Shown: positions 1 through 49,798, numbered from the stretch's first letter. The stretch is DNA of 64,000 nucleotides from Bacteroidia bacterium (GCA_965279035.1 OZ257142.1:3072001-3136000); one strand, 5' to 3'. A program made the numbers and translations. The notes: generated by a model from the sequence alone, not told the origin.

Positions 1-1674
1 TTTCTTCCAGATTTTCGATAGATCAAATCGCTTTCCTTGTTTTGCCCCGTCAGTATAAATGTAAATTATTGAAATTGAGTAAGGGACAACAGCTGATCTT
101 ATCTGACCCATTGAATGCTTCCCTTGACCATAAATCTTTTCAAGCTGAGTAAACAGTATAAATTTAGATATTAAATCTTCGTAAAAATCTCTATTTACAA
201 TGATTGCTTTCTTGCCTTTTGACTCACCAGTAATTTCTTCTAAAAAATATCTAAAAACCTTTTCGCCACCCTTTTTAACAATATAAGGTTGATCACCCCA
301 TGCAGTAAAATATTTACCTAACTGCTCTTTTGAGAAACGATAATTCTTAGGGTATTCTTTTTCAATTCTTGCTTTGTTTGAACCTGCAATTCTAAGTTTG
401 GTATTGAATTCTCCTCTTGATTTTTCAAAGAACCATTTCCTTCCAGAAGGAGTTACGATACTATCGGAAAGTGCTTTTAGTTTATTTAATTGCGGACTTC
501 TTGAACTTAAATCAACATTTGAAACCTTAGTCTGAGAATTAGAGTATCTACTTATATCCGAAATCAAAGTATCTAACCCATCTTCAGATACATCGCGAGC
601 AACATTTATCTTAGCCATTATTTTGACCTTTTCAATTGAAAACCCATCTTTTTGAGTGAAGTAGATGCTGGCAGTTGTTTGACCACCGTTTACAATTTGA
701 AAATCAGTCAATGATTTTATATAAATTTTTCCATCTTTTGATTCAATTTCTTTAGCTGTTGATGTTATTGTAATTCCATTATTGAAAGCAATAAATTTCT
801 CAGGACTTACTCTTATTGTTTCTCTTATTCCTTTGTTCGCACCTTTAAATTGAAGAAATGACCTCACATTCTTTTCAAGTAATCTTGAACTATACCTTTT
901 ATAAAGGTCAGAGAGTATAGTTGCAGGTAGAACACAGAGATAAGATTCAAAGTTTTCTTCCTCTGCGGCTTTAATGGCTTCTATTTTATAATTAAACAAA
1001 TTTTCAAAATCTATAACAAGTGCTTCTCTGTTACCTTGAGAAATTAAAACATCATATAAAAAATTGAGGTCAACTAATTTTTTAATGATCAGTAATTCTT
1101 TAGTAACTCTTTCTCTATTTCTTGTATAAGTAACTGAAATATTTTCATCTTCAAACTCTATCCTTTTTGGCTGTGGGACAGAGCCTCTGGATTCAGTTGT
1201 TGCTGTTGCACTTACTAAGAATATTTCAATAACATCATATTGTTCAGCACCTGTTGAGGATGAGAGTTGAGATAACAATGGTCTAATAGGGTCAGCATCC
1301 TGGACATCTTCATTTAAATATCCTTTGATAGCTTTATTCAAAAACTTTGTTACCCTCTTAAACTGATTGTCATAAAGACTTTTAGTTGAAATTTGCAAAT
1401 CTTTTTCAGATGAAGTAAGGTCTATACTTGATTCATCAACAATAAATAACTGCAATCGTTCTGATGATTCATTAACTGTATATCCATTCAACTTTAAGTT
1501 ATCTGAAGTATTCAAGAAATATGAATCATTCCAGTCTTCTGAATCGAGCAATTTAGCATCAACCATTAAAGGAAGAATTTGACTCAGCAATTGTGTTTGC
1601 TGAACAAATCCCTCATCGTCTTTTGAGCTGTCGAGTAATTCTTTTCTATAACTAAGAAATTCTTGAATTTTCAT
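1..1674 (-). CDS. AIPR family protein (MzaE-like), 3' end runs off the window
   Basis: Not in the ORF track because it has no stop in the window. Manual translation from ATG 1674 (MKIQEFLSYRKELL...) contains the AIPR motifs EKNVRSFL, FNNGIT, QIVNGGQTT and YSNSQ, and the frame is still open at base 1. Confidence 0.9.
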   Translation of the reverse strand, partial: MKIQEFLSYRKELLDSSKDDEGFVQQTQLLSQILPLMVDAKLLDSEDWNDSYFLNTSDNLKLNGYTVNESSERLQLFIVDESSIDLTSSEKDLQISTKSLYDNQFKRVTKFLNKAIKGYLNEDVQDADPIRPLLSQLSSSTGAEQYDVIEIFLVSATATTESRGSVPQPKRIEFEDENISVTYTRNRERVTKELLIIKKLVDLNFLYDVLISQGNREALVIDFENLFNYKIEAIKAAEEENFESYLCVLPATILSDLYKRYSSRLLEKNVRSFLQFKGANKGIRETIRVSPEKFIAFNNGITITSTAKEIESKDGKIYIKSLTDFQIVNGGQTTASIYFTQKDGFSIEKVKIMAKINVARDVSEDGLDTLISDISRYSNSQTKVSNVDLSSRSPQLNKLKALSDSIVTPSGRKWFFEKSRGEFNTKLRIAGSNKARIEKEYPKNYRFSKEQLGKYFTAWGDQPYIVKKGGEKVFRYFLEEITGESKGKKAIIVNRDFYEDLISKFILFTQLEKIYGQGKHSMGQIRSAVVPYSISIIYIYTDGAKQGKRFDLSKIWKK

Positions 1675-1676
1675 AT

Positions 1677-2645
1677 TTAAAATTCATTTTGTTCAATGAT
1701 AAAAGATGTAAGCAAGTTCGTTCTCAGGGAGTATTTCAAACCATTTACTTCTTCTGGAATATTTGATTTACTAAGTTTTGGGAAATTTTCATCTGCACAG
1801 TTGTATGATGTCCAGTTGACTGGCTTAAATCTGTATTTATCATACTGTATCAAATTTTTAGCAGTTATATTCTTTTGGCTTAATGCCTTCCATAAAATTG
1901 TATTGTCACCGGAAGATTCCTGAACCAATTTCTTTATTTCTGAAATCAAATCTCTGATATGAATACCAACGTTGAAATCACTTAATAATGAGACAACAAT
2001 CAATTCAAGTCCTTTGCCTCGAGAAACTTCCAACTGAAATTCACTTGATATTTTAACATCAATGCCAGATGGAGATTTTGATTTTACTTCTATATTTTTA
2101 CTTTCTAATTCAAAGTCATTCCCTTTATCATAAAGGCCAGTCCACGCCTCCATAAGAAAATTGATTTCGGGCCTATCTTGTGCAGTTAATAATAATTTCA
2201 GAACCAATAATTCTCCTATGATGCCTTTTATAGCTTCCTCAGAGAGTAAATCTGATTTCCTTTCTTCAAAGAATTCACTCCATCTGTAAAAGGTCTGAAT
2301 GAAATAATTTGAATATTCATCAACCTGACTGATACTTTTTATGCCATGATAGAGAGAGAGGATAAGGTCATCAAAAAGGTCGTTGAAATCACTATGAGTT
2401 AATTGAAGTACGATTAGATTTTTTTCTCTGAAGTATTCAATGGATAAATTTTCTTTTTGAACTCCTTTGAAATCTAAACTCTTGTTGCTCTGCAATGCAA
2501 GTATCAAACATCTCTTCCCTTCGTTGCTAACACCAAGGTAAAGTTCACAAATACAGTCAGCGGAAATTCTTAGAGATCGAAAGCCACTTGTTAAAGTATT
2601 CTCTGAAAGCCCTGACCACTTTTGCTTTAAATCAATACTTGTCAT
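1677..2645 (-). CDS. PD-(D/E)XK motif protein, DUF4420-like (MzaD-like)
   Basis: GIIGEL...WTG...DF...IEVKS...ISSEFQL pattern; lies between Z1 and AIPR genes. Confidence 0.85.
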   Translation of the reverse strand: MTSIDLKQKWSGLSENTLTSGFRSLRISADCICELYLGVSNEGKRCLILALQSNKSLDFKGVQKENLSIEYFREKNLIVLQLTHSDFNDLFDDLILSLYHGIKSISQVDEYSNYFIQTFYRWSEFFEERKSDLLSEEAIKGIIGELLVLKLLLTAQDRPEINFLMEAWTGLYDKGNDFELESKNIEVKSKSPSGIDVKISSEFQLEVSRGKGLELIVVSLLSDFNVGIHIRDLISEIKKLVQESSGDNTILWKALSQKNITAKNLIQYDKYRFKPVNWTSYNCADENFPKLSKSNIPEEVNGLKYSLRTNLLTSFIIEQNEF

Positions 2646-2647
2646 AA

Positions 2648-5600
2648 TTATATTTCGTTTGCATCCTCTGGCAATTCAGAATCAATTAAATTAAACTCTA
2701 TTTCATCTTCCTCTTCAAATCCATAATTACCATGAACATATACTCCACCGGGATCTGGTTCAATTGGTGGAAAACCAATGGCATATCCAATCAATGGAAT
2801 GTTCAAATCAATTCTTTCGTTTTCAACAAACGTTTTCATTTCAGGATCTTCCATACCCTTTTCTTGGAGAAAAACATAGTATGAATCTAAAACATAAATT
2901 AAAAGTAATCCTTCTTGGTCTGTCATTTTTTCCCGATACACTCTTTCGGGAACGTTTATTTTTTCTACTTCTTTTTCTACCTTTTTAATAGACCAATCAG
3001 GATATTTAATTTGATATTCCCTTTTTTTAATTTCCCGATATTCCCTTTCAGCATCTTGAATTTGGGATTGTGTTAAAAGAATTGATAAGTCTTGATTTGC
3101 AGAAATAATATGGGCTGATTTGCCAGATGCACTAAAAAGTTTATTGTGAATAAATTGGTTTCTATAGTGTTTTGCAGCAACAGTTTCTCCTGGTCCTCTT
3201 CTGATTGTCATTCCAATATTGATTACCAAATTCGATTCTTCCTTTTTCAAGATACCTTTGCCTTTTACATCATCTGCTCTTCCTGTGGCTTTAATTGCTA
3301 TTGTCCAGTTTTGAAGTTTTTTGTCAGATTGACATCTTTGTAAAAACTTTATCATGCTATCGCATCTGTCTTTACCGAAATTATTTTCTTGTTCAAGTAT
3401 GGTAATCATTCCAACTATATCTGTTTGGGCTACAAGAAAACTGACATCTTTTTCACCATGCTTTATGTATGGTTCAAAATTTAACTTAGTGACAATATTA
3501 TTTTTAAAACTCGAAAAAACACTTTCTATTTTTTCTTTTATTAACTCAAATTTTGTTGTTTCTTCAAGTTCATCCTGATATGACCAATTGACTTCTAAAG
3601 TATCCCTGAGAATGGATGGACGAGTAATTTTAAGAGCTCCGGGATGTTTCTTTACCCGAAGTATAAAATTAGCAGGTGTTTTATCTTTCTCTTCCATTTT
3701 CCTGAACTCAGTTTCAAGTTCTTCTATGGTTCTTGTAACCAAATCATATTTCTCCATTGAATCTCGGGTAATGAAAAGTTTACAACAATCCAGATATCCT
3801 GGTCTGTAACCAAACCATCTTCCCATTTGTAGCAAAGCATCAGAATAATCGGTTGATCGGACAAAATAGTTTATGCTTAATCCCTCAAGAGTAAATCCAC
3901 GGGATAATCTATTTCCACCAATGGCAATATATTTCTTCGGCGTGTTCTTCGGATAAACAAGTTTGTCGCCAGTAGAACTATTGACTGCTTTAACTTCAAT
4001 CCCTTTAATTGAATCGGTGAGAAAATTATTTTTTATAGTTTCAAAACTAATAGGTTTTAGAAATTCATCGTCGTATCCTTTCGGCAAATAGTCAGAAACA
4101 TGTTCAATAATTGTTGAGTAGTATTTGAACCAGATTCTCTCAAAGGTTGCAAAGATGGAACTAGGATTACTCGGGTCATCTAGTTGTAAACTACTTTGCA
4201 TGTCTCTTAAATACCCATCAATTAAATCTTTCAGACTGTTTTGCCATAGAGTGTATCTCGAAATGTGAATCAACATTGAATTATGCGGATTGAACATTGT
4301 AGAATTTACCATAGCAGGTTTCCTGCTTTCACGAATTGCAATTGAGAGAATAAAACAGAGAATACTTTCTTTTATTGAATCTGGCAATCTTTTTGGGAAT
4401 CCATCTCCAGTTCTGGAAGACCTTGTTTGTCTTCTGTATTCGCTGTAATCAGCAAAATCAAGATAAGAATTAAACTGTCCAATCTTTTCGTTCCAGTCAT
4501 TTTGATTTTTGATTTTCAACACACCTACCAATTCACTTTCGTTAGAAAAATAAACCTTGTCTGGGAAATGTTCAATGTTATCATCCACAAGTTCAACCAA
4601 AGGAATTTTTAATTCAGCTTTGTTATCTATTGGTTTTGTTGTCTCAAAAATTTGCTTTGCTCCAACATAATTTGTTGGTGGATTTAGCAGCACAATAAAA
4701 TCATCTGGAAATAAATTATCAACTCGTTGCAAGGCTTTTTCCTCCGTCTGTCTTCTAACCTTATATTTTACAATCCAGTTATTTTCAGGTGCATCATTTC
4801 TGTCAGCAAGAATATTTGCAAATGGTGTTGCTGTATAGCCCAAATATGTTTTGCGTTTAAACAATGCAAGTAAAGCCCTAATGTGTCCATTTGTTTTTGA
4901 TGCATATTCTCTTCCTAATTTGCCTTCATTGTTCAATGATGCGTTGTCTGCTTCATCATCCAAAATAAGCAATGGAATATCGTGTTGGTCTTTGTTTTCT
5001 TCAAGGTAGTCATGCAGCCATACAATCAGGTTACGCAACACACTCACATTGTTCTTACATACAAGTATGTTCGTATGATTAAGTGAGAAGTCTGCATCAA
5101 GTAAGTTCTTTTTAAAATCCGATTTTGCTGATGTAATAGAAATGACTTGAGTGACGCTGCTATCACCCATATTTCCAAACCTTCTTATTGCGCCAACTCC
5201 TTTTTTTACCAAAGTATCAGTATCAATATCAAGCCCTTCTCCCACCACATCACTTTCAATTCTTAATTGTGTTTGATTTCTCAAATCCTCCATTAAACCT
5301 GCAAGAACAATTATTAATCCGTAACCAGAATCAATTGCACGGTTGATTACAGCATTAAAGTTTTGGGTTTTCCCTGCTTGAACACTACCGACTACTAAAC
5401 CCTTGACATAAAACTCCTCTCTTGATTTTGGATCTCCCATCTTTCCCAAAATTTCAAGGCTTGTTGTTTTTGTTTCGTCAATTACTTTTTCAGAACGCCC
5501 GGCTTTTTCAAGTAAAGTGAAATATCTGTCGCTATAATTCCAAGAGTTTTTCATCTCCTCTTTTCTTTCTGCTGTCAGCCAAGTTTTGAATCCTTTTTTT

Positions 5601-5854
5601 GTTAATGAATTACTTGGGTCAATATCAATTGGATTAACAGACAAATACTGATTCTTGGCAGTCTCAAAATAATTTTTCAAAGTTACCTCATCAATTTCAG
5701 GATAACTCAAATGTTTAATGATTATGTTAATTGAATCTTTAATCTCGGGTAATAGGTTCAAAAAATAATTAGGGGATAAAGAATTATTTTTTGAGTATTC
5801 CTTTGCTTTTCCTTCGATAATTTTGATTATGATGTCAATGTATCTATTCTTCAT
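2648..5854 (-). CDS. Z1-domain SF2 helicase-like/endonuclease protein (MzaC-like)
   Basis: GLVVGSVQAGKT, ILDDEAD, YTATPFAN, GGNRLSRGFTLEGL and LLQMGRWFGYR motifs. Confidence 0.9.
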   Translation of the reverse strand: MKNRYIDIIIKIIEGKAKEYSKNNSLSPNYFLNLLPEIKDSINIIIKHLSYPEIDEVTLKNYFETAKNQYLSVNPIDIDPSNSLTKKGFKTWLTAERKEEMKNSWNYSDRYFTLLEKAGRSEKVIDETKTTSLEILGKMGDPKSREEFYVKGLVVGSVQAGKTQNFNAVINRAIDSGYGLIIVLAGLMEDLRNQTQLRIESDVVGEGLDIDTDTLVKKGVGAIRRFGNMGDSSVTQVISITSAKSDFKKNLLDADFSLNHTNILVCKNNVSVLRNLIVWLHDYLEENKDQHDIPLLILDDEADNASLNNEGKLGREYASKTNGHIRALLALFKRKTYLGYTATPFANILADRNDAPENNWIVKYKVRRQTEEKALQRVDNLFPDDFIVLLNPPTNYVGAKQIFETTKPIDNKAELKIPLVELVDDNIEHFPDKVYFSNESELVGVLKIKNQNDWNEKIGQFNSYLDFADYSEYRRQTRSSRTGDGFPKRLPDSIKESILCFILSIAIRESRKPAMVNSTMFNPHNSMLIHISRYTLWQNSLKDLIDGYLRDMQSSLQLDDPSNPSSIFATFERIWFKYYSTIIEHVSDYLPKGYDDEFLKPISFETIKNNFLTDSIKGIEVKAVNSSTGDKLVYPKNTPKKYIAIGGNRLSRGFTLEGLSINYFVRSTDYSDALLQMGRWFGYRPGYLDCCKLFITRDSMEKYDLVTRTIEELETEFRKMEEKDKTPANFILRVKKHPGALKITRPSILRDTLEVNWSYQDELEETTKFELIKEKIESVFSSFKNNIVTKLNFEPYIKHGEKDVSFLVAQTDIVGMITILEQENNFGKDRCDSMIKFLQRCQSDKKLQNWTIAIKATGRADDVKGKGILKKEESNLVINIGMTIRRGPGETVAAKHYRNQFIHNKLFSASGKSAHIISANQDLSILLTQSQIQDAEREYREIKKREYQIKYPDWSIKKVEKEVEKINVPERVYREKMTDQEGLLLIYVLDSYYVFLQEKGMEDPEMKTFVENERIDLNIPLIGYAIGFPPIEPDPGGVYVHGNYGFEEEDEIEFNLIDSELPEDANEI

Positions 5855-5859
5855 AAAAT

Positions 5860-7377
5860 TTATTTTAATAGTTGAATGACTTCTTGAGGTAATGAACTTT
5901 CAGTAAACCCGAGATTTGGAAGAATATCTTTTTTTATCAGTTCAGATGACAGCCCGCTTTCTATGAGTTGGTTGACACATGTAATTAAATCTTTCAAAGA
6001 CAATCCATCTTTCTCTTCAATGCCTACAAATTCTTTCTCCTCATGAGTTTGTCTGATTTCATTAATCCTTGTATTTATCATCCGAATGATCAAATTCAAT
6101 TTTACTAATTGATCTTTTTCCAATTCACTCATCAATGATTTTAGTAAAGGAAAACTATTGTTTACTTCCAACAAAGTCCCTTTACTGCTTGCTTTTCTCT
6201 CAAAGAGTTGCACATTATCCTCTTTGCGATTTGCTGAAAACTTTCTGATTCCTTTATTGAAAAATTCTCTTTCAGCCTGAATTTTCAATTCATCAATATA
6301 TTTTTCAAAAGCAACTGTTAAATCATGTGGTATTTCAATTTGTGATTTTGCTACATTCAAATGCAATAAATGGTCAACACTGTTGCCTATATCAACACGT
6401 AATCTTGCTAATTGAAGTCGAGGTGCTTTTTTAATTAAGCCATTCCATCCTCCAAAGTGAATTAACCTGTCTGCTCTGTATATATATATTCCTTCCATAT
6501 CCATTAAACTTCGGTTTTTTGTTGTCCATTTGGATATACTTTGGCTTTCATCAATACTTCTGGAAGGAAGAACAAAACCTTCAATTTTAATTGTATCTGT
6601 GCTGAATTGTTTTTGCTTGAATTCTATAGGCCTAAAATCTGTTTCCTGTGTTGGGAAAGGATTAAAAGATGCTATGAGATTGTTGTTAATTCTAATTAGT
6701 AACGGATTGTCTTTTCTCTCCATATATCTATGAAATACTAATGATAAATAATCCGAGGTAACTTCTGTTATTTGTTTCTTTAATGCTGATTGCCTTTTCT
6801 CTTCTTCTAAATAATTTTCAAACTTGTAGAGCCCTTGCCAGACTACAATTGTATTTGCCTCAAAATTTTCAAAGCGATTTAAATGTCCTTCACTGAGGAT
6901 TCGATATTGTTTAATGAGGTTTTCTATTTCTATTTGATTATTTACAATCAGACGCCATTTACCAACTTGCTTCAGATAGTTGACATCCCAAGTTCTACCA
7001 TAAAATTCCTTAGTTCCCTTTTTCCTAGACAAAACGGTAAAGCATCTAGTTTGTGAAAAGGAGGCCGTCTTCATACCTAATCCAAATCTTCCTAAATCAA
7101 GAGCATTTCTCTCTTCTTCTGGTGAGTTACTTGGAAACTGCATACTTGCTTTAAGTGCTTCCTCATTCATTCCATCACCATTATCAGCAATGAACAAGGC
7201 AAATGGCTCTTGTTCCATCTTAATAAGCACTTCAATTTTGTTAGCGTTTGCTGAAACAGAATTGTCCATCAAATCAGCTAATGATGATTCCAAACTATAT
7301 CCCTGTTCAGCAATTGATTTTATGAGATACTCAGGATTGGGATCTGCAATCTCTGAAAGTGGATTTCTATTTTCCAT
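5860..7377 (-). CDS. MORC/MutL-type GHKL ATPase (MzaB-like)
   Basis: LADLMDNSVSA, DNGDGM and LGRFGLGMKTAS GHKL motifs; ATG 7377 overlaps the dcm stop. Confidence 0.9.
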   Translation of the reverse strand: MENRNPLSEIADPNPEYLIKSIAEQGYSLESSLADLMDNSVSANANKIEVLIKMEQEPFALFIADNGDGMNEEALKASMQFPSNSPEEERNALDLGRFGLGMKTASFSQTRCFTVLSRKKGTKEFYGRTWDVNYLKQVGKWRLIVNNQIEIENLIKQYRILSEGHLNRFENFEANTIVVWQGLYKFENYLEEEKRQSALKKQITEVTSDYLSLVFHRYMERKDNPLLIRINNNLIASFNPFPTQETDFRPIEFKQKQFSTDTIKIEGFVLPSRSIDESQSISKWTTKNRSLMDMEGIYIYRADRLIHFGGWNGLIKKAPRLQLARLRVDIGNSVDHLLHLNVAKSQIEIPHDLTVAFEKYIDELKIQAEREFFNKGIRKFSANRKEDNVQLFERKASSKGTLLEVNNSFPLLKSLMSELEKDQLVKLNLIIRMINTRINEIRQTHEEKEFVGIEEKDGLSLKDLITCVNQLIESGLSSELIKKDILPNLGFTESSLPQEVIQLLK

Positions 7378-8626
7378 CAAAAAGTTGACTAATTGTATTT
7401 GCTATTGTTTTAGCCATTAATGGCGGTACTGCATTTCCAATTTGTTTGAATGCTGCAGTTCTATTAGCACTTTCTTTTTCGCCTTCAAAATAATAATCAT
7501 CTGGAAATGATTGAAGACGTGCAGCTTCTCTTACGCTAATTGATCTATTTTGCTTTATATCTGGATGAATATAATAATGCCCGTCTTTGGAAATATGAGC
7601 AACAACAGTTTGAGAATAGGGTAAATCAGAGGCGACTACTTTAAACCTATCAAAAAATGAAGTTCGATTTTGATGAGTCTTTAAATTTTCTGGTAAATCA
7701 TTATAATTCAACCGTTCTTTTTTCTTTTCCCATTTTTTAACTGCAATCTTATATATTTCTTTATCCTGATCACGATGAGGACGTGAAATATGTTGAGTTA
7801 AAACATTTAGACCATTTCTAAATGCATGCCTTTTTAAATAATCTGAAGCTTCTGATTTATATTTAACAAATTTATCTATACCATCTCCTGCATTTATTGC
7901 TGGCAAGTCCATTAATAAGTCGTTTACTTTAAAGTTGCTTTCACAATTTATATCTTCAAGATTAGGAATATTTATATTTAACTTTTTTTGCCAACCAAGA
8001 ATAACAATACGTTTTCTATTTTGTAAAACTTCGAAATTTTTTGCCTCTAGTGTGAAAAGCTTAATCAGATATCCTTTGCTTTGAAACAACCTTTCCATTT
8101 CTGCAAGATAGTGACCCTGTTTTGCAGATTTAAGTCCAAGAACATTTTCGAAAACAAACATTTTGGGTTTATATTTTTGTAAATAACCAGCATATTGAAT
8201 AAATAAATAATTCCTAGGATCACCCTCCATTTTGGTCTTTGATCTAGACCTTCCAACTAAAGAATACGCTTGACAAGGTGGTCCACCAATTATTAAATCA
8301 ACTTTTCTATTTCCTAATATTCCTTTAATTTTTTTATGAATTAATTGATTATTATCATCACCTATTGGCAAGTTAATAATAGAATCCAAAATTTGATTTG
8401 GAACATTCGCATAAAGCTGCTCACGTGTAATTTCACCTTTGAGGTAAGATGTATATTTATCATACTTCTTAATTCCTTTTAAATAATGAAATACAGCCCG
8501 TGTTCGAAGTGTATTACAGGCTGATTTTTCAATTTCAACATGAGCTATTGGTTCAAAACCAGCTTGAATAAAACCTTCTGAAAGTCCACCTGCACCAGCA
8601 AATAAGTCTATGAAATTGTAAGCCAT
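7367..8626 (-). CDS. dcm: DNA (cytosine-5)-methyltransferase
   Basis: DLFAGAGG, GGPPCQ, FENV, QNRKR, REAARLQSFPD and QIGNAVPP motifs. Confidence 0.95.
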   Translation of the reverse strand: MAYNFIDLFAGAGGLSEGFIQAGFEPIAHVEIEKSACNTLRTRAVFHYLKGIKKYDKYTSYLKGEITREQLYANVPNQILDSIINLPIGDDNNQLIHKKIKGILGNRKVDLIIGGPPCQAYSLVGRSRSKTKMEGDPRNYLFIQYAGYLQKYKPKMFVFENVLGLKSAKQGHYLAEMERLFQSKGYLIKLFTLEAKNFEVLQNRKRIVILGWQKKLNINIPNLEDINCESNFKVNDLLMDLPAINAGDGIDKFVKYKSEASDYLKRHAFRNGLNVLTQHISRPHRDQDKEIYKIAVKKWEKKKERLNYNDLPENLKTHQNRTSFFDRFKVVASDLPYSQTVVAHISKDGHYYIHPDIKQNRSISVREAARLQSFPDDYYFEGEKESANRTAAFKQIGNAVPPLMAKTIANTISQLFDGK

Positions 8627-8950
8627 TATATCTTTTTGAATTTGCCTAAATTAACCATTTTTCAAATCCAAGTACAGTTAAGAACACTTTAAAGCTAAGG
8701 AGTTTTTAACTGAACTTTATTACTTTTAAATGACAACTTGATACTTTCTCTTTCTTTATCATAAGTTAATTTGATACTGAATTCTTTTCGTTTTAATAAT
8801 CGAATTCAATTCATCCAAAGTTAATAATGCATACTTAGTTGATTTTGGGTGTAACAAAACAGAATTAATATTACAATATGCTAAAACATAAAATTTATCA
8901 ATTATGAAATCTCCAAACATCCCCCACAAAAAAACACCAGCCGATTAACT

Positions 8951-9058
8951 AGTATCAAGTAAAGAGTATTAAGTACAAAGGTTGTATAATGTATAGATTA
9001 CCAAGCACTTAGACCGCTTAATACACTAACCTCATTACTCTTTATTAACAACCAAACT
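8951..9058. repeat. Degenerate third copy of the paaZ-tail/heptamer hairpin repeat
   Basis: AGTATCAAGTAAAGAGTATTAAGTACAAAG...CTTAATACACTAACCTCATTACTCTTTATTAACAACCAAACT aligns with 12302-12377 and 11610-11652. Confidence 0.65.
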
Positions 9059-9077
9059 AAGCCATCAGATTCAAGTT

Positions 9078-9536
9078 CTATTTAAAAATCCGCTTGTCAA
9101 ATGGGAACTTTTGAATGTTCTGGATACGTATTCTACTAAAATCTTTATGGTTTGGATTGATTAGCACATTGAAATCGCCTTGAGTGACAACCGAAGGGAT
9201 AAATGCCACACAGTACTTATTTTCTGTTACAAAGTCATTTCCTATTTTCTGAGTGCTGAATGGATGTGGAAATTCTTTCCAATTAATGGGTAATTCCCTT
9301 TCTTGAATGTGCTTTACTTCGATATCATCGGGAATGTAAATGCTAATCATCACATAATCGTCGGGTAAAGTGGCCAAGGTAAAATGTACTGCCACTTCGG
9401 CCATAGCAAGTGAGCGGTTATTGGCGGTGTAAATGAGTTCTATCCCCACCGAATTCCATCTTGCTCCTTTTAAAGCAGCTCCTAATCCAGATAATGGTGT
9501 AGCATATTGCTCTCTTGCAAGACGATATACTTCCAT
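9078..9536 (-). CDS. RES-domain toxin (NAD+-targeting, MbcT/ParT-like)
   Basis: VYRL...SGLGA...GARWN...Y...SLAMAE...IPS...NVLINPNH. Confidence 0.9.
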   Translation of the reverse strand: MEVYRLAREQYATPLSGLGAALKGARWNSVGIELIYTANNRSLAMAEVAVHFTLATLPDDYVMISIYIPDDIEVKHIQERELPINWKEFPHPFSTQKIGNDFVTENKYCVAFIPSVVTQGDFNVLINPNHKDFSRIRIQNIQKFPFDKRIFK

Positions 9537-10040
9537 TTAAACCAATATTCCGTAGTTAATGCGGGTTAATTCACTCATGACCATTTCTTTGCCATAGGAA
9601 TCTTTGAGCAGTTCAATAGGCTTTAATGAACCCAAAGCATAACTAGGAGTATTGAGCCACAAGCGGAGTTTGTCACTACTTCCAAACACTTCTATACCCA
9701 ATTTCGTTACTTCGGCCATTTCAATAATCTTTTCTGAATGAATAGACTTGAATTGATAGGCAGTTGCCACTCTGTAGCGTTGAAGTGATTTGGTAGAAAT
9801 ATCAAGAAAACTAGCCCAATCATTTTCCGAGAATGGCGTGTATTCTTGTATTAAATCGAATAATGAATAGGGTATACCTGCACGAATGGCAAGTATGATG
9901 AGCATCTTATCTTTTAAGAATTCCTCGTAACTAATTGTTCCTTTTACTGCAGCAGCATATCCGCTAAAGCGATGCGTTTTAAAATAGCTTGAAATTTCCT
10001 TGTTTAGCCTACCTTCTAGCTTTGTTGTTGCGCTTGCCAT
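9537..10040 (-). CDS. Xre/MbcA/ParS-type antitoxin (DUF2384)
   Basis: HTH plus C-terminal VFGS...WLNTP..ALG..KPIELL; abuts the RES gene. Likely start is ATG 10040, because the longer ORF runs into the repeat and IS end. Confidence 0.88.
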   Translation of the reverse strand: MASATTKLEGRLNKEISSYFKTHRFSGYAAAVKGTISYEEFLKDKMLIILAIRAGIPYSLFDLIQEYTPFSENDWASFLDISTKSLQRYRVATAYQFKSIHSEKIIEMAEVTKLGIEVFGSSDKLRLWLNTPSYALGSLKPIELLKDSYGKEMVMSELTRINYGILV

Positions 10041-10269
10041 AACCGCTCGTTTTAGACACTTGTCTGCAAGTATAAGACAAATATCCAAACGAAACAACAC
10101 GGATATTGTTTCAGTGTGAGTGTAAAAAGTATTAAGTAAAAAGTACCAAGTATCAAGTACAAAGATGTCCTTGCCTAAAATAGGTTGACTTTTTATTATC
10201 ACTTTCTACTTTGTTAAAGTAGTTTATTGTTTGTTGTTTTAAGTTTCTTTTTTGGTTCTTTTTTCTTTG

Positions 10270-11136
10270 TTAAGAAGTTGTATTTCTGTTGATATTTCCT
10301 GAATTCCAGTTATATATGGTCATAGAAGGATTTTGATTTCTTTGGTTATTCACTTTTTCATATTCAGTAGGTGTTAGCATGCCTAATTCACTGTGTGGTC
10401 GTTCATTATTGTAAAGATCCATTGCCTTTTTTGCCATCTCATTGAGATTGCTTTTGGTTAGATTCCATTGAAGTAAGTACTCGTTTTTTATGATGCCATT
10501 TATTCGTTCAACATAAGCATTTTCTTGTGCTATTGACGCCATACTGATTCGTATTCCTTTGCTTTTTAGCATCTCTTTATGCATCGTGCTGATGTATTGT
10601 GAACCTCGATCAGAATGAAAAATGCAATTATCTAAATCGTGCCCTTTCCTTATTTTAAAGGCTTTTCTAAGTGCTTTGATATTTTCCTCCGCTCTTAAGC
10701 TTGGAGACAGATGTAGAGCTAATAAGCGCCTTGAATAGACATCTTCAATACAGATTCCATAATGATGTGCATGCTCTACATCGAGATAAAATATGTCAGA
10801 TTGCCAAAGCATATTCACATCATTAATCGTTATTCCATTTATCAGATTGTCATATATCTCAACGCGTTGAGACCAAGTCGTTCGTATTGGATTTCTCTTC
10901 TTCTTAACCTTATATCCGTACCTAAAACCAATCCGCTCAAAAGCATCCCTACCTATTGGATGGCGTTGTGGATCCATAAAATAGATCTTTCTACAACCCA
11001 TTTGGCGATGATTATGACGCACTTTTGATATGTAACGAACGATACTTTCTTCCACCTTTAATTGGTCGCGACTTCGTCTTTCACTCTTCCAAAGTGCTTG
11101 CTTACTAAGGCCTGCCACTTCTAACAGACTCTTCAT
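10270..11136 (-). CDS. IS3 transposase OrfB (DDE/rve domain)
   Basis: WQSDI, HSDRGSQY, ENAYVERINGIIKNE and YNNERPHSELG motifs. Confidence 0.95.
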   Translation of the reverse strand: MKSLLEVAGLSKQALWKSERRSRDQLKVEESIVRYISKVRHNHRQMGCRKIYFMDPQRHPIGRDAFERIGFRYGYKVKKKRNPIRTTWSQRVEIYDNLINGITINDVNMLWQSDIFYLDVEHAHHYGICIEDVYSRRLLALHLSPSLRAEENIKALRKAFKIRKGHDLDNCIFHSDRGSQYISTMHKEMLKSKGIRISMASIAQENAYVERINGIIKNEYLLQWNLTKSNLNEMAKKAMDLYNNERPHSELGMLTPTEYEKVNNQRNQNPSMTIYNWNSGNINRNTTS

Positions 11137-11555
11137 TTTGTACCCGTGCTTTTGTCCTTTTGTGGATCGGAACCAGAGTAAGGCTGGTTTAATAAATTTT
11201 TTTTTAAATCAGTTTGGAACTCCTCATTTGCTAACTCAATGACCTTGCTCAATAAATCAAGTTCCATCTGTTTTCGGCCCAATGCGGCTTCCAATTCACG
11301 GATGCGCTGCTCAAGCTCTTTGCTTTTGTATGATTCGCTTTGCTCTTCCACTACTAAGATTTTTCCTCTCTTCAAATATCGACTATATTGATAAATCCAT
11401 CGATAAACTGAAGTTATTGTTACTCCTAGTTCCTGGGCTACTTTAGATACTGAAGCCACTCCGGATTCAATATCCTTAACTGTTTGACGCTTTAATTCTT
11501 CACTAAAAACTCTTCGTGGCCGAATTACTTCTTTGCGATTTAAATGCTTTTTCAT
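11133..11555 (-). CDS. IS3 transposase OrfA (HTH)
   Basis: FSEELKRQTV...VAQELGV...VYRW HTH plus coiled coil; ATGA overlap with orfB. Confidence 0.9.
   Translation of the reverse strand: MKKHLNRKEVIRPRRVFSEELKRQTVKDIESGVASVSKVAQELGVTITSVYRWIYQYSRYLKRGKILVVEEQSESYKSKELEQRIRELEAALGRKQMELDLLSKVIELANEEFQTDLKKNLLNQPYSGSDPQKDKSTGTK
11170..11205 (-). promoter_or_regulatory. Probable -1 programmed frameshift signal of the IS3
   Basis: A9 run (T9 on + strand, 11197-11205) followed by the stem AACCAG/CTGGTT; the -1 frame stays open into orfB. Confidence 0.7.
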
Positions 11556-11603
11556 GTCCCGTTTTTTAAGTTGATTTTGGTCAACCTATTTCAGTCACGG
11601 ACA

Positions 11604-11683
11604 AGAGGTCTTATTACTCTATACTCAGTACTCTATACTAACAACCCAAACTGCTCAATATGATGGTTGAAATGTTTGATGTT
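11604..11683. repeat. Second copy of the paaZ 3' end plus hairpin arm (other arm at 10129-10165, split off by IS3)
   Basis: 11606-11683 matches 12331-12408 with 4 mismatches in 78 nt and encodes [16 protein letters not shown]. Confidence 0.92.
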
Positions 11684-11707
11684 GTCAACAACTATAAAGT
11701 GAATACC

Positions 11708-12050
11708 TCAACTAATCTCTAAACACGCAAGGTCCTTACATTCCATGTTTTCAATAAATTTCCTCACTCCTTCGGCGAAGTCATTTAGTTTCTTAGCGAT
11801 ATTCTGGGAAGAAGTGTTACCTAAGCGAAGCCATATTACTTTAGGAGGATGTCCGTATAATGTGACTAAATCATAGAAGTCAATATCCTATGTTACTATT
11901 ATGAAAGTCATTTTCTTTCGCAAAATTCCATATTTGCCGATCACTTGAATGATGTAATCCAAAGTCTTTCACATGCTTTGATTCTGGAAACTTTTCAGCA
12001 ATCAAGTTTTAAACACGAAAAGAAATGTTTTGATCAAAAAGCAATTTCAC
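11708..12050 (-). pseudogene. DUF5615/PIN-like toxin pseudogene
   Basis: The GTG start overlaps the DUF433 stop. It reads MKLLFDQNISFRV*...DRQIWNFAKEND(frameshift)IIVT*DIDFYD...GHPPKVIWLRLGN, with two stops and a frameshift. Confidence 0.85.
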
Positions 12051-12271
12051 GATGCAATTCTAATTTTATGCTCTCTGTCGGCAGCATATTCAAGAGCTGC
12101 TTTAATATCCTCATCTGTAAGATCAGGGTAGTCTTGTAGTATTTCACTTGAAGACATTCCTGATGCTAACCAACTTAAGATATCATATACAGAAATCCTC
12201 ATGCCTCTAATACAAGGCTTTCCAAATCGAATCTGAGGATCAATGGTAATTATTTCTGAATAATGCTTCAT
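12047..12271 (-). CDS. DUF433 antitoxin
   Basis: ITIDPQIRFGKPCIRGMRISVYDIL...DYPDLTDEDIKAALEYAA. Confidence 0.92.
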   Translation of the reverse strand: MKHYSEIITIDPQIRFGKPCIRGMRISVYDILSWLASGMSSSEILQDYPDLTDEDIKAALEYAADREHKIRIAS

Positions 12272-12301
12272 ACTGATAAAGATAGAAAAATTCAAATGAC
12301 T

Positions 12302-12408
12302 GTATTAAGTACAAAGTATCAAGTACAAAGAGGTCTTAATACTCTATACTCAGTACTCTATACTAACATCCCAAACTGCTCAAAATGATGGTTGAAATGC
12401 TTGATGTT
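12302..12408. repeat. Native copy: 7-bp-periodic imperfect inverted repeat overlapping the paaZ stop, plus the paaZ tail
   Basis: GTATTA AGTACAA AGTATCA AGTACAA AG-AGGT-CT TAATACT CTATACT CAGTACT CTATACT. Confidence 0.85.
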
Positions 12409-14856
12409 AATCAGATCCCATTCAAATTTGTCGAGCATGCCAAAGACCATGTTTTTGGTTTGGGCGTCGGGGTTGGCTTTGAAATAGGCTTCAAATGCAT
12501 CCCAGGATTCGAGGAGTTTGGCTTTAGCCGTTTTGAGGTCGGCGTGGCGGAGTGGTTCGAGGCTATCTGGAGACATAAGCGGATGCTTGAAATCGCGCGG
12601 CATGGCTCTGAAATTATACACCGAATCGTGGAATTTTTCGAGGTGTTCGGCTGGAGTAGAGAATTCAAAATCTTGGATTTCACCAGCGGCAATACGTAAG
12701 GTAAATTCCATGTGCTCTACCATGTGTTGCGGCGTTAATTGGCCCCAAGCAGCAGGTGTGTTTTCCTTTAATTTAGCGAGGAAACCTTCCACATTGGCGC
12801 GGGTAATTTGCACAAATGGCGATTTCTTTTGCACCATGGTCAAAATGGTGGCGATGGCTACAAGCTCGTCGTTTTGATCGAACACCTCTACAAACCATTT
12901 CACAATGCCACATGGAATTTCTTTGCCCACACTGTCGCGCTCAATTTTCTGTTTGCAGGTCAAACGCACGTAAATCGTGTCGTTATGGTAAATAGGGCGC
13001 ACAAAGCGACATTCTTCCAAGCCATAATTCGCAGCCACTGGACCTTTGTTCGGATAAACGAATAATCCCGCAGCAGCCGAAAGAATGAAATAGCCGTGAG
13101 CCGTACGTTTTTCGAAAATGCTGCCTTTAAGGGAAGTAATATCGGTATGCGCATAGAAATGATCCCAGCTTACGTTAGCAAAGCTGATGATATCGGAATC
13201 GGTCACCGTGCGCTTATGCGTTTTGAGCGACATGCCCGGTTGAATGTCTTCCCAATGGTATTTAAACGGATGTTCTGCCGCTTCTTTATAAGCCGCATTC
13301 GGCTGATAAATGCCCGTAATTTCGGTCAACGTAGTTGGACTACCCTGAATAGCACAGCGTTGCATGTAATGCTTAATTCCGCGCACACCGCCCATCTCTT
13401 CGCCCCCACCGGCACGACCTGGTCCGCCGTGCACCAATAATGGAAGCGGAGAACCATGTCCTGTACTTTGTTTCGCATTTTCGCGATTGAGCACGAGGAT
13501 ACGTCCGTGATGCGTAGCCGATTGAATCACATAGTCTTTCGCCAAGTGATCATCATTGGTTACAATAGAAGAAACCAAGGAACCTTTTCCTAAGCGCGCT
13601 AAATCAACGGCTTCGTCGATGGTGCTGTATGGCATCAAGGTAGAAACAGGACCAAAGGCTTCGGTTTCGTGCACACGCATGTTCTCGAACGGCTTTTCTT
13701 CACGCAGTAAAATAGGCGCAATGAAAGCTCCTTTTTCGGCATCGGCACCAATCAATTCGAGGGTATCTACATTTCCATAAACGATAGAAGCGGTTTCGGC
13801 AATTTCGGCTACGCGTTCTTTCACTTCACGCACTTGATCTTTGCTCACCAAAGAACCCATGCGCACTTCTTTCAAGCGTGGATCACCCAAGCTCACTTTA
13901 TCGAGTGCCTTACTGAGTGCTACCTGCACATCGTCCATGTAATTAGCAGGCACAATCAAGCGGCGAATGGCAGTACATTTCTGTCCAGCTTTCACGGTAA
14001 TTTCGGAACGTGCCTGACTGATAAACAAATCGAATTCAGGTGTTCCTGGAGCAGCATCTAGCCCTAAAACAGAGCTATTGAGTGAGTCGGCCTCCATGTT
14101 AAATGGGACAGATTCGGCAATAATGCGTGGATGCGCTTTAAGTTTTCTTCCGGTGGATGCAGAGCCGGTGAAGGTCACTACATCTTGGTCGTTTAGGTGA
14201 TTGAGCATATCGCCCGCTGAACCACAAATAAGTTGCAAAGCACCTTCGGGAAGAATGTTCGACGCAATGATTTCGCGCACGACCGCTTCTGTCAAATAGG
14301 ACGTTGAAGTAGCAGGTTTCACTACTGCAGGCACGCCCGCCATCCAGTTCACCGCACATTTTTCGAGCATCCCCCAAATAGGGAAATTGAAGGCATTGAT
14401 GTGCACCGCCACTCCGCGTTTAGGAACGAGGATATGATGAGCCATAAAGCGTCCACCACGCGAAAGGTCAATCGGATCACCTTCCACATGATAAGGCTGA
14501 TTGGGAAATAATTTACGCAAGGAAGCATTGGCAAACAGGTTCCCAAAACCACCTTCAATATCAATCCAACTATCGACACGCGTTGCCCCGGTACGATAGG
14601 AAATTTCGTAGAACTGTTCCTTGCGTTTGCTCAGGTACAGCGCGAGTTTCTTAATCATGTTCCCACGTTCCTGAAAGGTCATTCGGCGCAGTTTCTCCCC
14701 GCCCTTAGTGCGACCATAATGGAGGATTTCGCCAAAATTCAATCCTTCGGCAGTAGCGTGGCAAATCACTTCACCCGTCACCGAATCGATGAGCGGAACA
14801 CCTTCGCCTTGTCCGTCGGTCCAGTGGCCGTTTACATAATTTTGAAGCTTAGTCAT
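12358..14856 (-). CDS. paaZ: Oxepin-CoA hydrolase/3-oxo-5,6-dehydrosuberyl-CoA semialdehyde dehydrogenase with a C-terminal DinB/DUF1569-like domain
   Basis: ALDH domain (INAFNFP, EADSLN, GQKCTA), MaoC domain (WDHFYAH) and an extra ~150 aa containing QHMVEH...[11 protein letters not shown]. Confidence 0.93.
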
Positions 14857-20764: not shown

Positions 20765-21230
20765 TTCTTTATCAACGGACTTGTTGGTAAATCCTGCTTG
20801 GATGATGTTGAAAATTGATGTAGGGAATTCCCACGACTATCCCCTTCCCATTGGAAAATTAATACTTATTAAAATACGGAAGCTAAAAAGGTATTCACAT
20901 GACTGTTGATACTGTTTATTAACTAATCTGTTTGTAATTCCAGCTTGATAATAAATTACAAATTAATTAGGGAATTCCCACAATCATCCCCTTCCCAGTG
21001 GAAAATTAATTCGCGGAAGAATTCTCTCGACAATTAAGAATAGAAAATAATGAACCCGCCTGTTGATAAAGTTTATCAACTTCTTTGTTTGTAATTCCCG
21101 CTTGACAATTAATAGAAATTATTTTAGGGAATTCCCAGCACTATCCCCTTCCCAGTGGAAATTTACAAATGATAAGAATACGTTAAACAGGTAGCACTTT
21201 AAAGCTATCCACAGACCTGTTAATTAAGTT
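20765..21230. repeat. Three diverged ~150-bp tandem units plus a partial fourth
   Basis: Each unit has TGTTGAT..TTTAT(C/T)AAC..TGTT(T/G)GTAA.TCC.GCTTG..TAGGGAATTCCCA-n5-ATCCCCTTCCCA(G/T)TGGAAA; GGGAATTCCC starts at 20823, 20970 and 21127. Confidence 0.9.
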
Positions 21231-49577: not shown

Positions 49578-49736
49578 AATGGATTGAAATCCATTAGTGT
49601 TGGGAAATAGGATTGAAATCCATTTATATAGGGGAAATGGATTGAAATCCATTTGTGCTGTAGGAATAATGCTGCATGTTCATATTTATGATTAGCAAAA
49701 CCAGTTGTGTTGGGGAAATAGGATTGAAATCCTATT
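49578..49736. repeat. Cluster of four REP-like palindromes AAT(A)GGATTGAAATCC(T)ATT
   Basis: Copies near 49578, 49606, 49636 and 49717. Confidence 0.85.
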
Positions 49737-49798
49737 ATGCTGTAGGACTTTAGCTGCATATTCCTTATAAATTACTCTTAAATTAAATTATTCTTTAA

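Follow-up and report, generated by a model that had tools for sequence, protein, structure and literature searches.

Copies of the paaZ gene end separate toxin–antitoxin and defence modules in a Bacteroidia genome

Integrons hold arrays of gene cassettes with attC sites, and toxin–antitoxin cassettes are found in chromosomal integrons. The integrative mobile elements exploiting Xer (IMEX) at dif, and the pdif modules on Acinetobacter plasmids, use the Xer recombinases of their host. Here we analyse a locus that invites comparison with these systems, on a stretch of 64,000 nucleotides from a Bacteroidia bacterium (GCA_965279035.1 OZ257142.1:3072001-3136000), hereafter the window, with positions counted from its first letter. 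In this locus the end of the paaZ gene, together with an adjoining hairpin built of 7-nt units, recurs downstream of the gene, and the resulting repeats, A, B and C (between 8951 and 12408), bound toxin–antitoxin and defence genes.

As in integrons, small cassettes stand in series at a fixed site, have palindromes between them, include toxin–antitoxin cargo and contain no recombinase. In contrast to integrons, no intI or attI was found in the window and the relatives searched, the repeat includes a copy of a coding tail, the palindrome is not confined to cassettes, and the cargo in relatives reaches 8–10 kb with many genes. Xer-dependent modules depend on a host recombinase acting in trans at a regenerated site, which leads to arrays, and are small and often of the toxin–antitoxin type; the site described here, however, is the 3′ end of a gene and not dif, and no dif-like motif was identified.

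Tandem accretion at the 3′ end of a target gene has been described for integrative and conjugative elements, integrative and mobilizable elements and cis-mobilizable elements (CIMEs), including CIMEs without an integrase, in Streptococcus elements related to ICESt1 and ICESt3 (PMC5704250, in its accessible text). An earlier reading of this DNA made without database searches (below, the sequence-only reading) knew of no described system with such an architecture, a statement which this precedent makes too strong. The present locus shares with the accretion set out in that text the direct repeats (A, B and C in the window, and two copies each in two relatives, G001 and G015) and modules that lack integration and transfer genes, as judged with Pfam, PADLOC and a map of PF00589 genes. 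It differs in that no related integrase-bearing element was found, in modules as small as about 0.6 kb (a single toxin–antitoxin pair), in a long repeat (about 113 nt) that includes a hairpin of a dispersed family, in its host, which belongs to the Bacteroidota, and in being known from sequence alone. Heptamer repeats have been described in Bacteroidetes (accessible part of PMC4679880). Like those hairpins and the cyanobacterial ones of the short tandemly repeated repetitive type, the hairpins found here have arms of 7-nt units, lie at gene ends and are dispersed in the genome; the described ones are not reported, in the available text, to duplicate a coding tail or to bound stacked cargo. A literature search, which did not cover supplementary files, found no paper on tail-duplicating cassettes at paaZ.

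Repeats of the paaZ tail and the modules between them

The source lineage is Flavobacteria-like, within the Bacteroidota. Read along the minus strand, paaZ (12358..14856, minus; 832 aa; Pfam Aldedh 6e-55 and MaoC 5e-22), the putative insertion target, is followed by repeat A, a DUF433/DUF5615 pair (cassette 1), repeat B, which is split by an IS3-family insertion sequence (IS), an Xre/RES pair (cassette 2), repeat C and the Dcm-MzaBCDE genes (module 3). Within the 64-kb window the GC content is 31–36% to the left of the paaZ end, versus 40–45% to its right.

Repeat A (12296..12408, minus) comprises the last 16 codons of paaZ with the TAG stop (12358-12408) and a heptamer hairpin at about 12296-12363, the first units of which encode the last two codons and the stop. 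Repeat B is also on the minus strand, in two parts: the paaZ-proximal one (11604..11683) holds a copy of the 16 codons and the stop with the left hairpin arm, and the distal one (10120..10165), beyond the IS, holds the right arm. The similarity between A (12328-12408) and the left part of B (11603-11683) amounts to 95% identity over 81 nt, with 4 mismatches; it sets in precisely with codon −16 of paaZ (N-I-K-H...), covers the stop and extends into the hairpin. B starts 24 nt past the stop of DUF5615, and C starts 19 nt past that of RES. Clusters of the heptamers AGTAYNA/TNRTACT occur only at A, B and C within the 64 kb. The predicted fold is a stem with one mismatch per 7 nt and a weak energy (z about −1.9), matched by 12–13 of 200 shuffles. 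Rfam gave nothing above noise, and besides that of paaZ no further gene-tail duplicate was found in the window.

Repeat C (8951..9058, minus) is more decayed, with about 13 nt of the tail left (9046-9058) and about 31 extra nt in its hairpin. Its alignment scores are 71 against A and 82 against B, and the best of 1,800 null window tiles reaches 36. The score of the whole alignment is inflated by the hairpin, which is a member of a dispersed family: the hairpin portion alone scores 46 and 53 against A and B, and unrelated family members of two relatives, G002 and G013, score 41–66. In an unanchored test the tail portion alone did not reach significance, as 27 of 1,800 tiles did equally well; nor was a longer alignment of the upstream flank of C into paaZ significant (126 of 1,004 tiles as good). 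The 14-mer AGTTTGGGTTGTTA, allowing at most one edit on both strands, has no occurrence in the window besides those at A, B and C; 2.7 Mb of other loci contain it three times. Because of this rarity, and because the 13-nt remnant stands directly before its hairpin, C is assigned to the paaZ terminus; on this evidence it is a real third copy, keeping four to five codons.

The arrangement of the repeats is not an assembly artefact. Two contigs of the sequencing run that contains the window (0.98 of its words) cover the repeats: the first reaches from the left part of B through cassette 1 and A to paaZ, the second from C through cassette 2 to the right part of B, which rules out the artefact that the sequence-only reading had itself considered. 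The same reading had described B as copying the last 16 codons, stop and hairpin of paaZ across the IS, C as a decayed third copy with about five codons that, like B, begins shortly after a toxin stop, and the hairpin as built of 7-bp units, all of which is confirmed by the measurements above. It had further proposed an age-ordered array. The decay of the repeats does increase with distance from paaZ, but a strict order is not shown, as the toxin of cassette 1 is dead and the divergence of this cassette from G002 equals that of paaZ. The 4 differences between A and B in 81 positions are few, which suggests that B postdates the split from G002 or has undergone conversion.

Cassette 1 is formed by a DUF433 antitoxin gene (12047..12271, minus; 74 aa from an ATG at 12271; Pfam DUF433 8e-29) and a DUF5615 (PIN-like) toxin gene (11708..12041, minus), in which three-frame translation reveals in-frame stops and a frameshift. 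The sequence-only reading, which named the toxin as PIN, had overlooked that it is a pseudogene. In cassette 2, an Xre-like helix–turn–helix (HTH) antitoxin with an MbcA/ParS-type C-terminal domain (9537..10040, minus; Pfam PF09722 9e-11, PF20432 2e-6) precedes an intact RES-domain toxin of 152 aa (9078..9536, minus; Pfam RES 2.5e-23). Both cassettes show type II toxin–antitoxin pairing (DUF433 with DUF5615, Xre/MbcA-type with RES), as predicted from families. RES homologues in 24 genomes of the family of G001 are at most 44% identical, precluding a comparison of context, and the Xre/RES-Dcm DNA was not found in G002, G013, G015, G007 or G001. Module 3 (1..8626, minus) includes a cytosine-5 methylase (7367-8626; Pfam), MzaB (5860-7380; PADLOC 6e-41), MzaC/Z1 (2648-5854; 4e-88), MzaD/DUF4420 (1677-2645; 8e-17) and MzaE/AIPR (1-1674; 1e-50), all on the minus strand and the last cut by the left edge of the window. 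With MzaB, MzaC (Z1), MzaD, MzaE (AIPR) and a cytosine methylase, it belongs to the Mza defence system.

Variation at the paaZ 3′ end among relatives

Five of the genomes compared (G002, G013, G015, G001 and G007) belong to the clade referred to below, and a whole-genome collection supplied closer relatives than the survey of paaZ loci. Identity to the window in the C-terminal half of paaZ is 98% for G002, 93% for G013, 92% for G015 and 84% for G001. The variation at this site that the sequence-only reading foresaw is indeed present: a metagenome relative lacks cassette 1, G002 has other genes beyond it, and G001 and G015 have duplicates of their own.

G002 matches the window at 92.6% nucleotide identity over paaZ, the hairpin, DUF433 and DUF5615, the last of which has an intact reading frame in G002 (Pfam DUF5615 8e-34). 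The similarity ends at window position 11687, 4 nt ahead of the start of B, and beyond cassette 1 G002 has HNH, NUDIX and PLD-type nuclease genes up to the contig end. A putative decayed repeat after cassette 1 of G002 was rejected, as it was not significant (245–421 of 3,522 tiles as good). Nucleotide identity between the window and G002 is 95.2% in DUF433, 91.8% in DUF5615 and 93–94% in paaZ, and on these values cassette 1 appears to have been vertically inherited since the split from G002. In the metagenome relative (about 93–95% identical), an 808-nt contig connects 10152 with 12333, leaving one hairpin between Xre/RES and paaZ, and the depth over cassette 1 is zero. Its single repeat would fit either excision or never having had the insertion. 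This relative has no cover over 8872-9105 (repeat C), other runs are partial, and no inference was drawn from such gaps; no circle junction was seen in the contigs examined.

In G001, a second copy of the paaZ tail, stop and hairpin lies 10.2 kb downstream, with 99 of 121 nt identical from codon −14/−15 onwards, and is followed by a further 10.6 kb and then by an enoyl-CoA hydratase gene. This second copy has the same G001-specific synonymous variants as the paaZ tail of G001 itself, so the copies were made or homogenised within each lineage. In G015, a decayed tail copy is found 8.4 kb downstream; it matches exactly over a stretch of 11 nt, has a deletion of 7 nt and is homologous back to about codon −14. 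No third tail copy was found in either genome. The boundaries of the tail copies thus lie within about two codons of each other in three lineages. Neither of the two enclosed segments is related to the other or to the cassettes of the window: that of G001 holds thioredoxin, PAS/kinase, response regulator and fasciclin genes, and that of G015 holds TauE, DoxX, DUF2071, methyltransferase and beta-lactamase-like genes. With such regulatory and metabolic cargo, the proposal that the site receives defence cassettes does not extend to these relatives. The DNA directly past the second copy is unrelated among the window, G001 and G015, and G001 and G015 have a common gene block a few kilobases past it.

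More distant relatives show the usual state of this gene end. Among 585 paaZ relatives, the best in that collection being 84% identical, 80 loci were examined for downstream context. The hydratase gene lies 3′ of paaZ in 77 of them, the other three being two contigs that are too short and the locus of G001 (L001); it is absent from the whole 64-kb window. The spacing between the two genes is 7–625 nt in 73 of the 77 loci, and insertions of 1.4–6.5 kb are present in four. The insertions at L038, L068, L056 and L060 have no tail duplicate; the cargo includes IS200-like and IS66 genes in L038 and CHAT in L068. Outside the clade, a coding-tail duplicate within 10 kb was found at none of the 80 loci.

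Other features were observed at this position in the same loci. In 13 of the 80 relatives (L024, L026, L035, L040, L046, L049, L052, L053, L054, L063, L064, L069 and L075), the interval from paaZ to the hydratase gene contains a small GIY-YIG gene with short GC-rich hairpins on both sides. In L026, L035, L040, L053, L063, L064, L069 and L075 the bases after the stop are the reverse complement of the last 11–17 nt of paaZ and track species-specific changes; the same inverted tail is present in L050, with another open reading frame (ORF) instead of GIY-YIG. Many Flavobacterium relatives (L003-L011, L019, L022, L028, L029, L031, L032, L041, L066 and L072) have a conserved structured repeat, …GCTAATCCTGCTATCCGC…GGATTTCCACTRCTATCAGGGCTAG, 3′ of paaZ. 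It resembles a known Flavobacterium intergenic RNA or repeat motif, presumably the one called Flavo-1, a name we use as a candidate label only.

The sequence-only reading had suggested a search for other gene-tail duplications, and one was run on G001. In a 785-kb sample of this genome with 603 open frames of at least 150 aa, a same-strand downstream match was sought within 40 kb of each gene tail. Only two tails had one, those of paaZ and of a collagen-like repeat gene broken by Ns, in which the match is an internal repeat; control segments taken from gene interiors gave four matches, all of them internal repeats. A degenerate pattern of the tail (up to 3 mismatches) matches 11 of 24 genomes of the order of G001, and only G001 twice. 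In a class-wide sample it matches 66 of 400 genomes (a tally that includes an unpublished genome, G116, with a single match); seven have two matches, which lie on the same contig only in G001. These comparisons show tail duplication to be restricted to paaZ.

The heptamer hairpin and its insertion sequence

The hairpin is a dispersed, heptamer-armed genomic repeat and is not cassette-specific. Its right arm in the window matches at least six other sites in G002 and several in G013, which are intergenic heptamer hairpins or arrays, and loose ends in the source run show that it is dispersed in the source genome too. A 19-nt word of the hairpin was found in at least 120 metagenome contigs, in varied heptamer tandem or hairpin arrays of unrelated contigs, none of which carries the paaZ tail. 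Short-period hairpins lie directly 3′ of paaZ in many of the 80 relatives and are also present at other places of the respective locus; at least 10 of the 80 have a heptamer hairpin right after paaZ, and none of these has a tail duplicate. Within the clade the hairpin supplies the last two codons and the stop of paaZ (…LV*), or in G002 the stop only (…GIL*); outside the clade the protein ends in …GLL* or …GIL*. On this point the integron-like interpretation is not supported, as a hairpin dispersed beside many unrelated genes and around PF05635 genes is no cassette-specific, attC-like site.

PF05635 genes, coding for the 23S rRNA intervening-sequence protein, are present in two to four copies per genome in the five clade genomes, between inverted heptamer arms. 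At all six loci inspected (L297-L302), these cassettes occupy precisely the space between two neighbouring genes, such as a fadJ-like and a thiolase gene. One of those in G002 uses the heptamer word of the window, and one in G001 uses the word of the G001 paaZ hairpin.

In repeat B, the loop of the hairpin is occupied by the IS (10166..11603, minus). Its assignment to the IS3 family rests on two overlapping ORFs, orfA (11133-11555) with an HTH domain and orfB (10270-11136) with a DDE rve domain (Pfam HTH_Tnp_1, rve and rve_3), on terminal inverted repeats of 24 nt and on a 3-bp target duplication, an AGA triplet on both sides (10163-10165 and 11604-11606). In-silico excision of the IS and one AGA restores an A-like hairpin. 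In the source run the IS has a read depth of about 803, versus 104 for its flanks, which corresponds to about eight copies. Another copy in that run adjoins a near-identical hairpin arm, heptamer sequence follows one IS end, and at one locus of G002 (L244, contig C100, about 527-580) the loop of another hairpin contains a short sequence that resembles the IS terminal repeat. Taken together, these positions suggest that the IS targets hairpin loops; a known case of such targeting is IS1397, which inserts into repetitive extragenic palindromic (REP) elements and bacterial interspersed mosaic elements (BIMEs).

Two further repeats of the window were recorded. In the intergenic region 20782-21165, a unit of about 150 nt that contains a GGGAATTCCCAC…CCCCTTCCCA box and is unrelated to the paaZ repeats occurs three times in tandem, and a short tandem direct repeat of about 80–105 nt lies at 49582-49763.

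Origin of the repeats

The explanation we prefer, and hold tentatively, is that A, B and C are att-type repeats which remain from recurrent site-specific insertion at the 3′ end of paaZ, in a CIME-like accretion with the recombinase acting in trans. The paaZ 3′ end would then be a dedicated insertion site in a small clade, with an att-type site inside the paaZ tail at which site-specific recombination would be followed by tandem accretion. Each acquired segment would be bounded by a direct repeat of the last 14–16 codons of paaZ, the stop and the adjoining hairpin, such that paaZ would remain whole and its displaced tail copy, without function, would be left to decay. The window would represent three successive steps (DUF433/DUF5615, Xre/RES and Dcm-Mza), the order and direction of the insertions being inferred. 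The toxin–antitoxin units would be integrase-less, CIME-like modules, either minimal units or remnants of decayed islands, and the recombinase, of whatever kind, would act in trans or be encoded beyond the left edge of the window. A defined site, rather than chance, is favoured because the boundaries cluster, because the spare copies resemble the tail of their own genome, and because the duplication is restricted to paaZ.

Several observations weigh against this explanation. Pfam and PADLOC searches of 12.4 kb of the window, the 21 kb between paaZ and the hydratase gene in G001, the G015 segment and 2.7 kb of G002 detected no recombinase gene other than the DDE transposases of IS elements, in agreement with the sequence-only reading, which had seen no integrase in the window. 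The PF00589 genes of G001, G015, G002 and G013 are at least 38 kb from paaZ or on other contigs: the shortest distance is 57 kb for G001 and 38 kb for G013, and those of G015 are on contigs other than that of paaZ; three tyrosine recombinases of G001 had no tblastn match in the whole window, which is a weak test. No integrase-bearing element using the same putative att site was found in the window, G001, G015, G002, viral contigs or plasmids: in viral contigs the degenerate tail, used to look for a mimic of the paaZ tail, gave 0 matches, and plasmid blastn with cassette 2 and C found nothing. In addition, a second repeat of G002 was not found in the 2.7 kb before the contig end nor elsewhere in that incomplete genome, the boundary differs by 6 nt between the window (−16) and G001 (−14/−15), the G001 and G015 segments resemble ordinary chromosomal genes, and neither an excision product nor an empty site within one population was seen.

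The main rival, which we consider rather unlikely, is an old scar. One or more accidental events in the ancestor of the clade, for example homology-facilitated illegitimate recombination of foreign DNA with a truncated paaZ end, would have produced a spare copy that gene conversion has preserved, the content being swapped by homologous recombination with no site-specific enzyme. The lack of a recombinase gene in cis in the segments examined speaks for it, as do the gene block common to G001 and G015 past the second copy, which could be orthologous, and the divergence of cassette 1 from G002, which equals that of paaZ and fits vertical descent. The single repeat of the metagenome relative could stem from a deletion between A and B, and the window resembles a G002-type unit and a metagenome-type unit placed end to end. 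However, the window requires at least two duplication events, the window, G001 and G015 have no related DNA just past the second copy, conversion would have to maintain 82% identity across 10 kb in G001, boundaries within two codons in three lineages would have to trace to one event, and no such copy was found in G002, so that several extra assumptions are needed. Improbable, in our view, is a copying process tied to the hairpin, by which a spare gene end with its hairpin, with or without cargo, would replace the live tail and push the old one downstream through a host or element factor other than a classical integrase. For all five clade genomes, the hairpin does overlap the last codons of paaZ and supply its stop; hairpins of this kind also flank the PF05635 genes that fit precisely between two others, and this process, too, agrees with the lack of an integrase in cis. 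Yet no mechanism of this kind is known, the G001 survey weakens it, as 785 kb with many such hairpins has a tail duplicate only at paaZ, and none of the at least 10 of 80 relatives with heptamer hairpins after paaZ has one.

A true integron, with IntI and attI nearby and the repeats as attC sites, would account for an array of small cassettes, promoterless or self-promoted and including toxin–antitoxin pairs, with imperfect palindromes between them. We regard it as highly improbable, as no tyrosine recombinase was found within the window or close to paaZ in G001, G015 and G013, the repeat includes a coding tail, its palindrome comes from a dispersed genomic family, and the GTTRRRY/RYYYAAC core pair was not found by eye. 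A broader proposal, which we judge unlikely, is that the paaZ tail is the landing pad of an undescribed cassette-stacking system of Bacteroidota, functionally analogous to integrons and Xer-dependent modules and based on the widespread heptamer-hairpin elements, whose modules would carry or generate a spare tail of about 15 codons with a heptamer hairpin and would be inserted by a trans-acting factor, the live end being replaced and older units pushed outward.

If the locus is an old scar maintained by gene conversion, it would be a clean example of hot-spot turnover between core genes, and a caution against taking direct repeats as att sites. If instead the repeats are recombination sites, as in the accretion we prefer, they would define a compact route by which a recombinase acting in trans assembles toxin–antitoxin and defence genes at a single place in the chromosome of Flavobacteria-like bacteria, a group whose island biology is poorly described. 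The small site (about 113 nt) and the tiny modules make this directly testable by plasmid recombination assays, and, if true, it would give a first functional context to the heptamer-armed hairpins, which are common but unexplained in several phyla.

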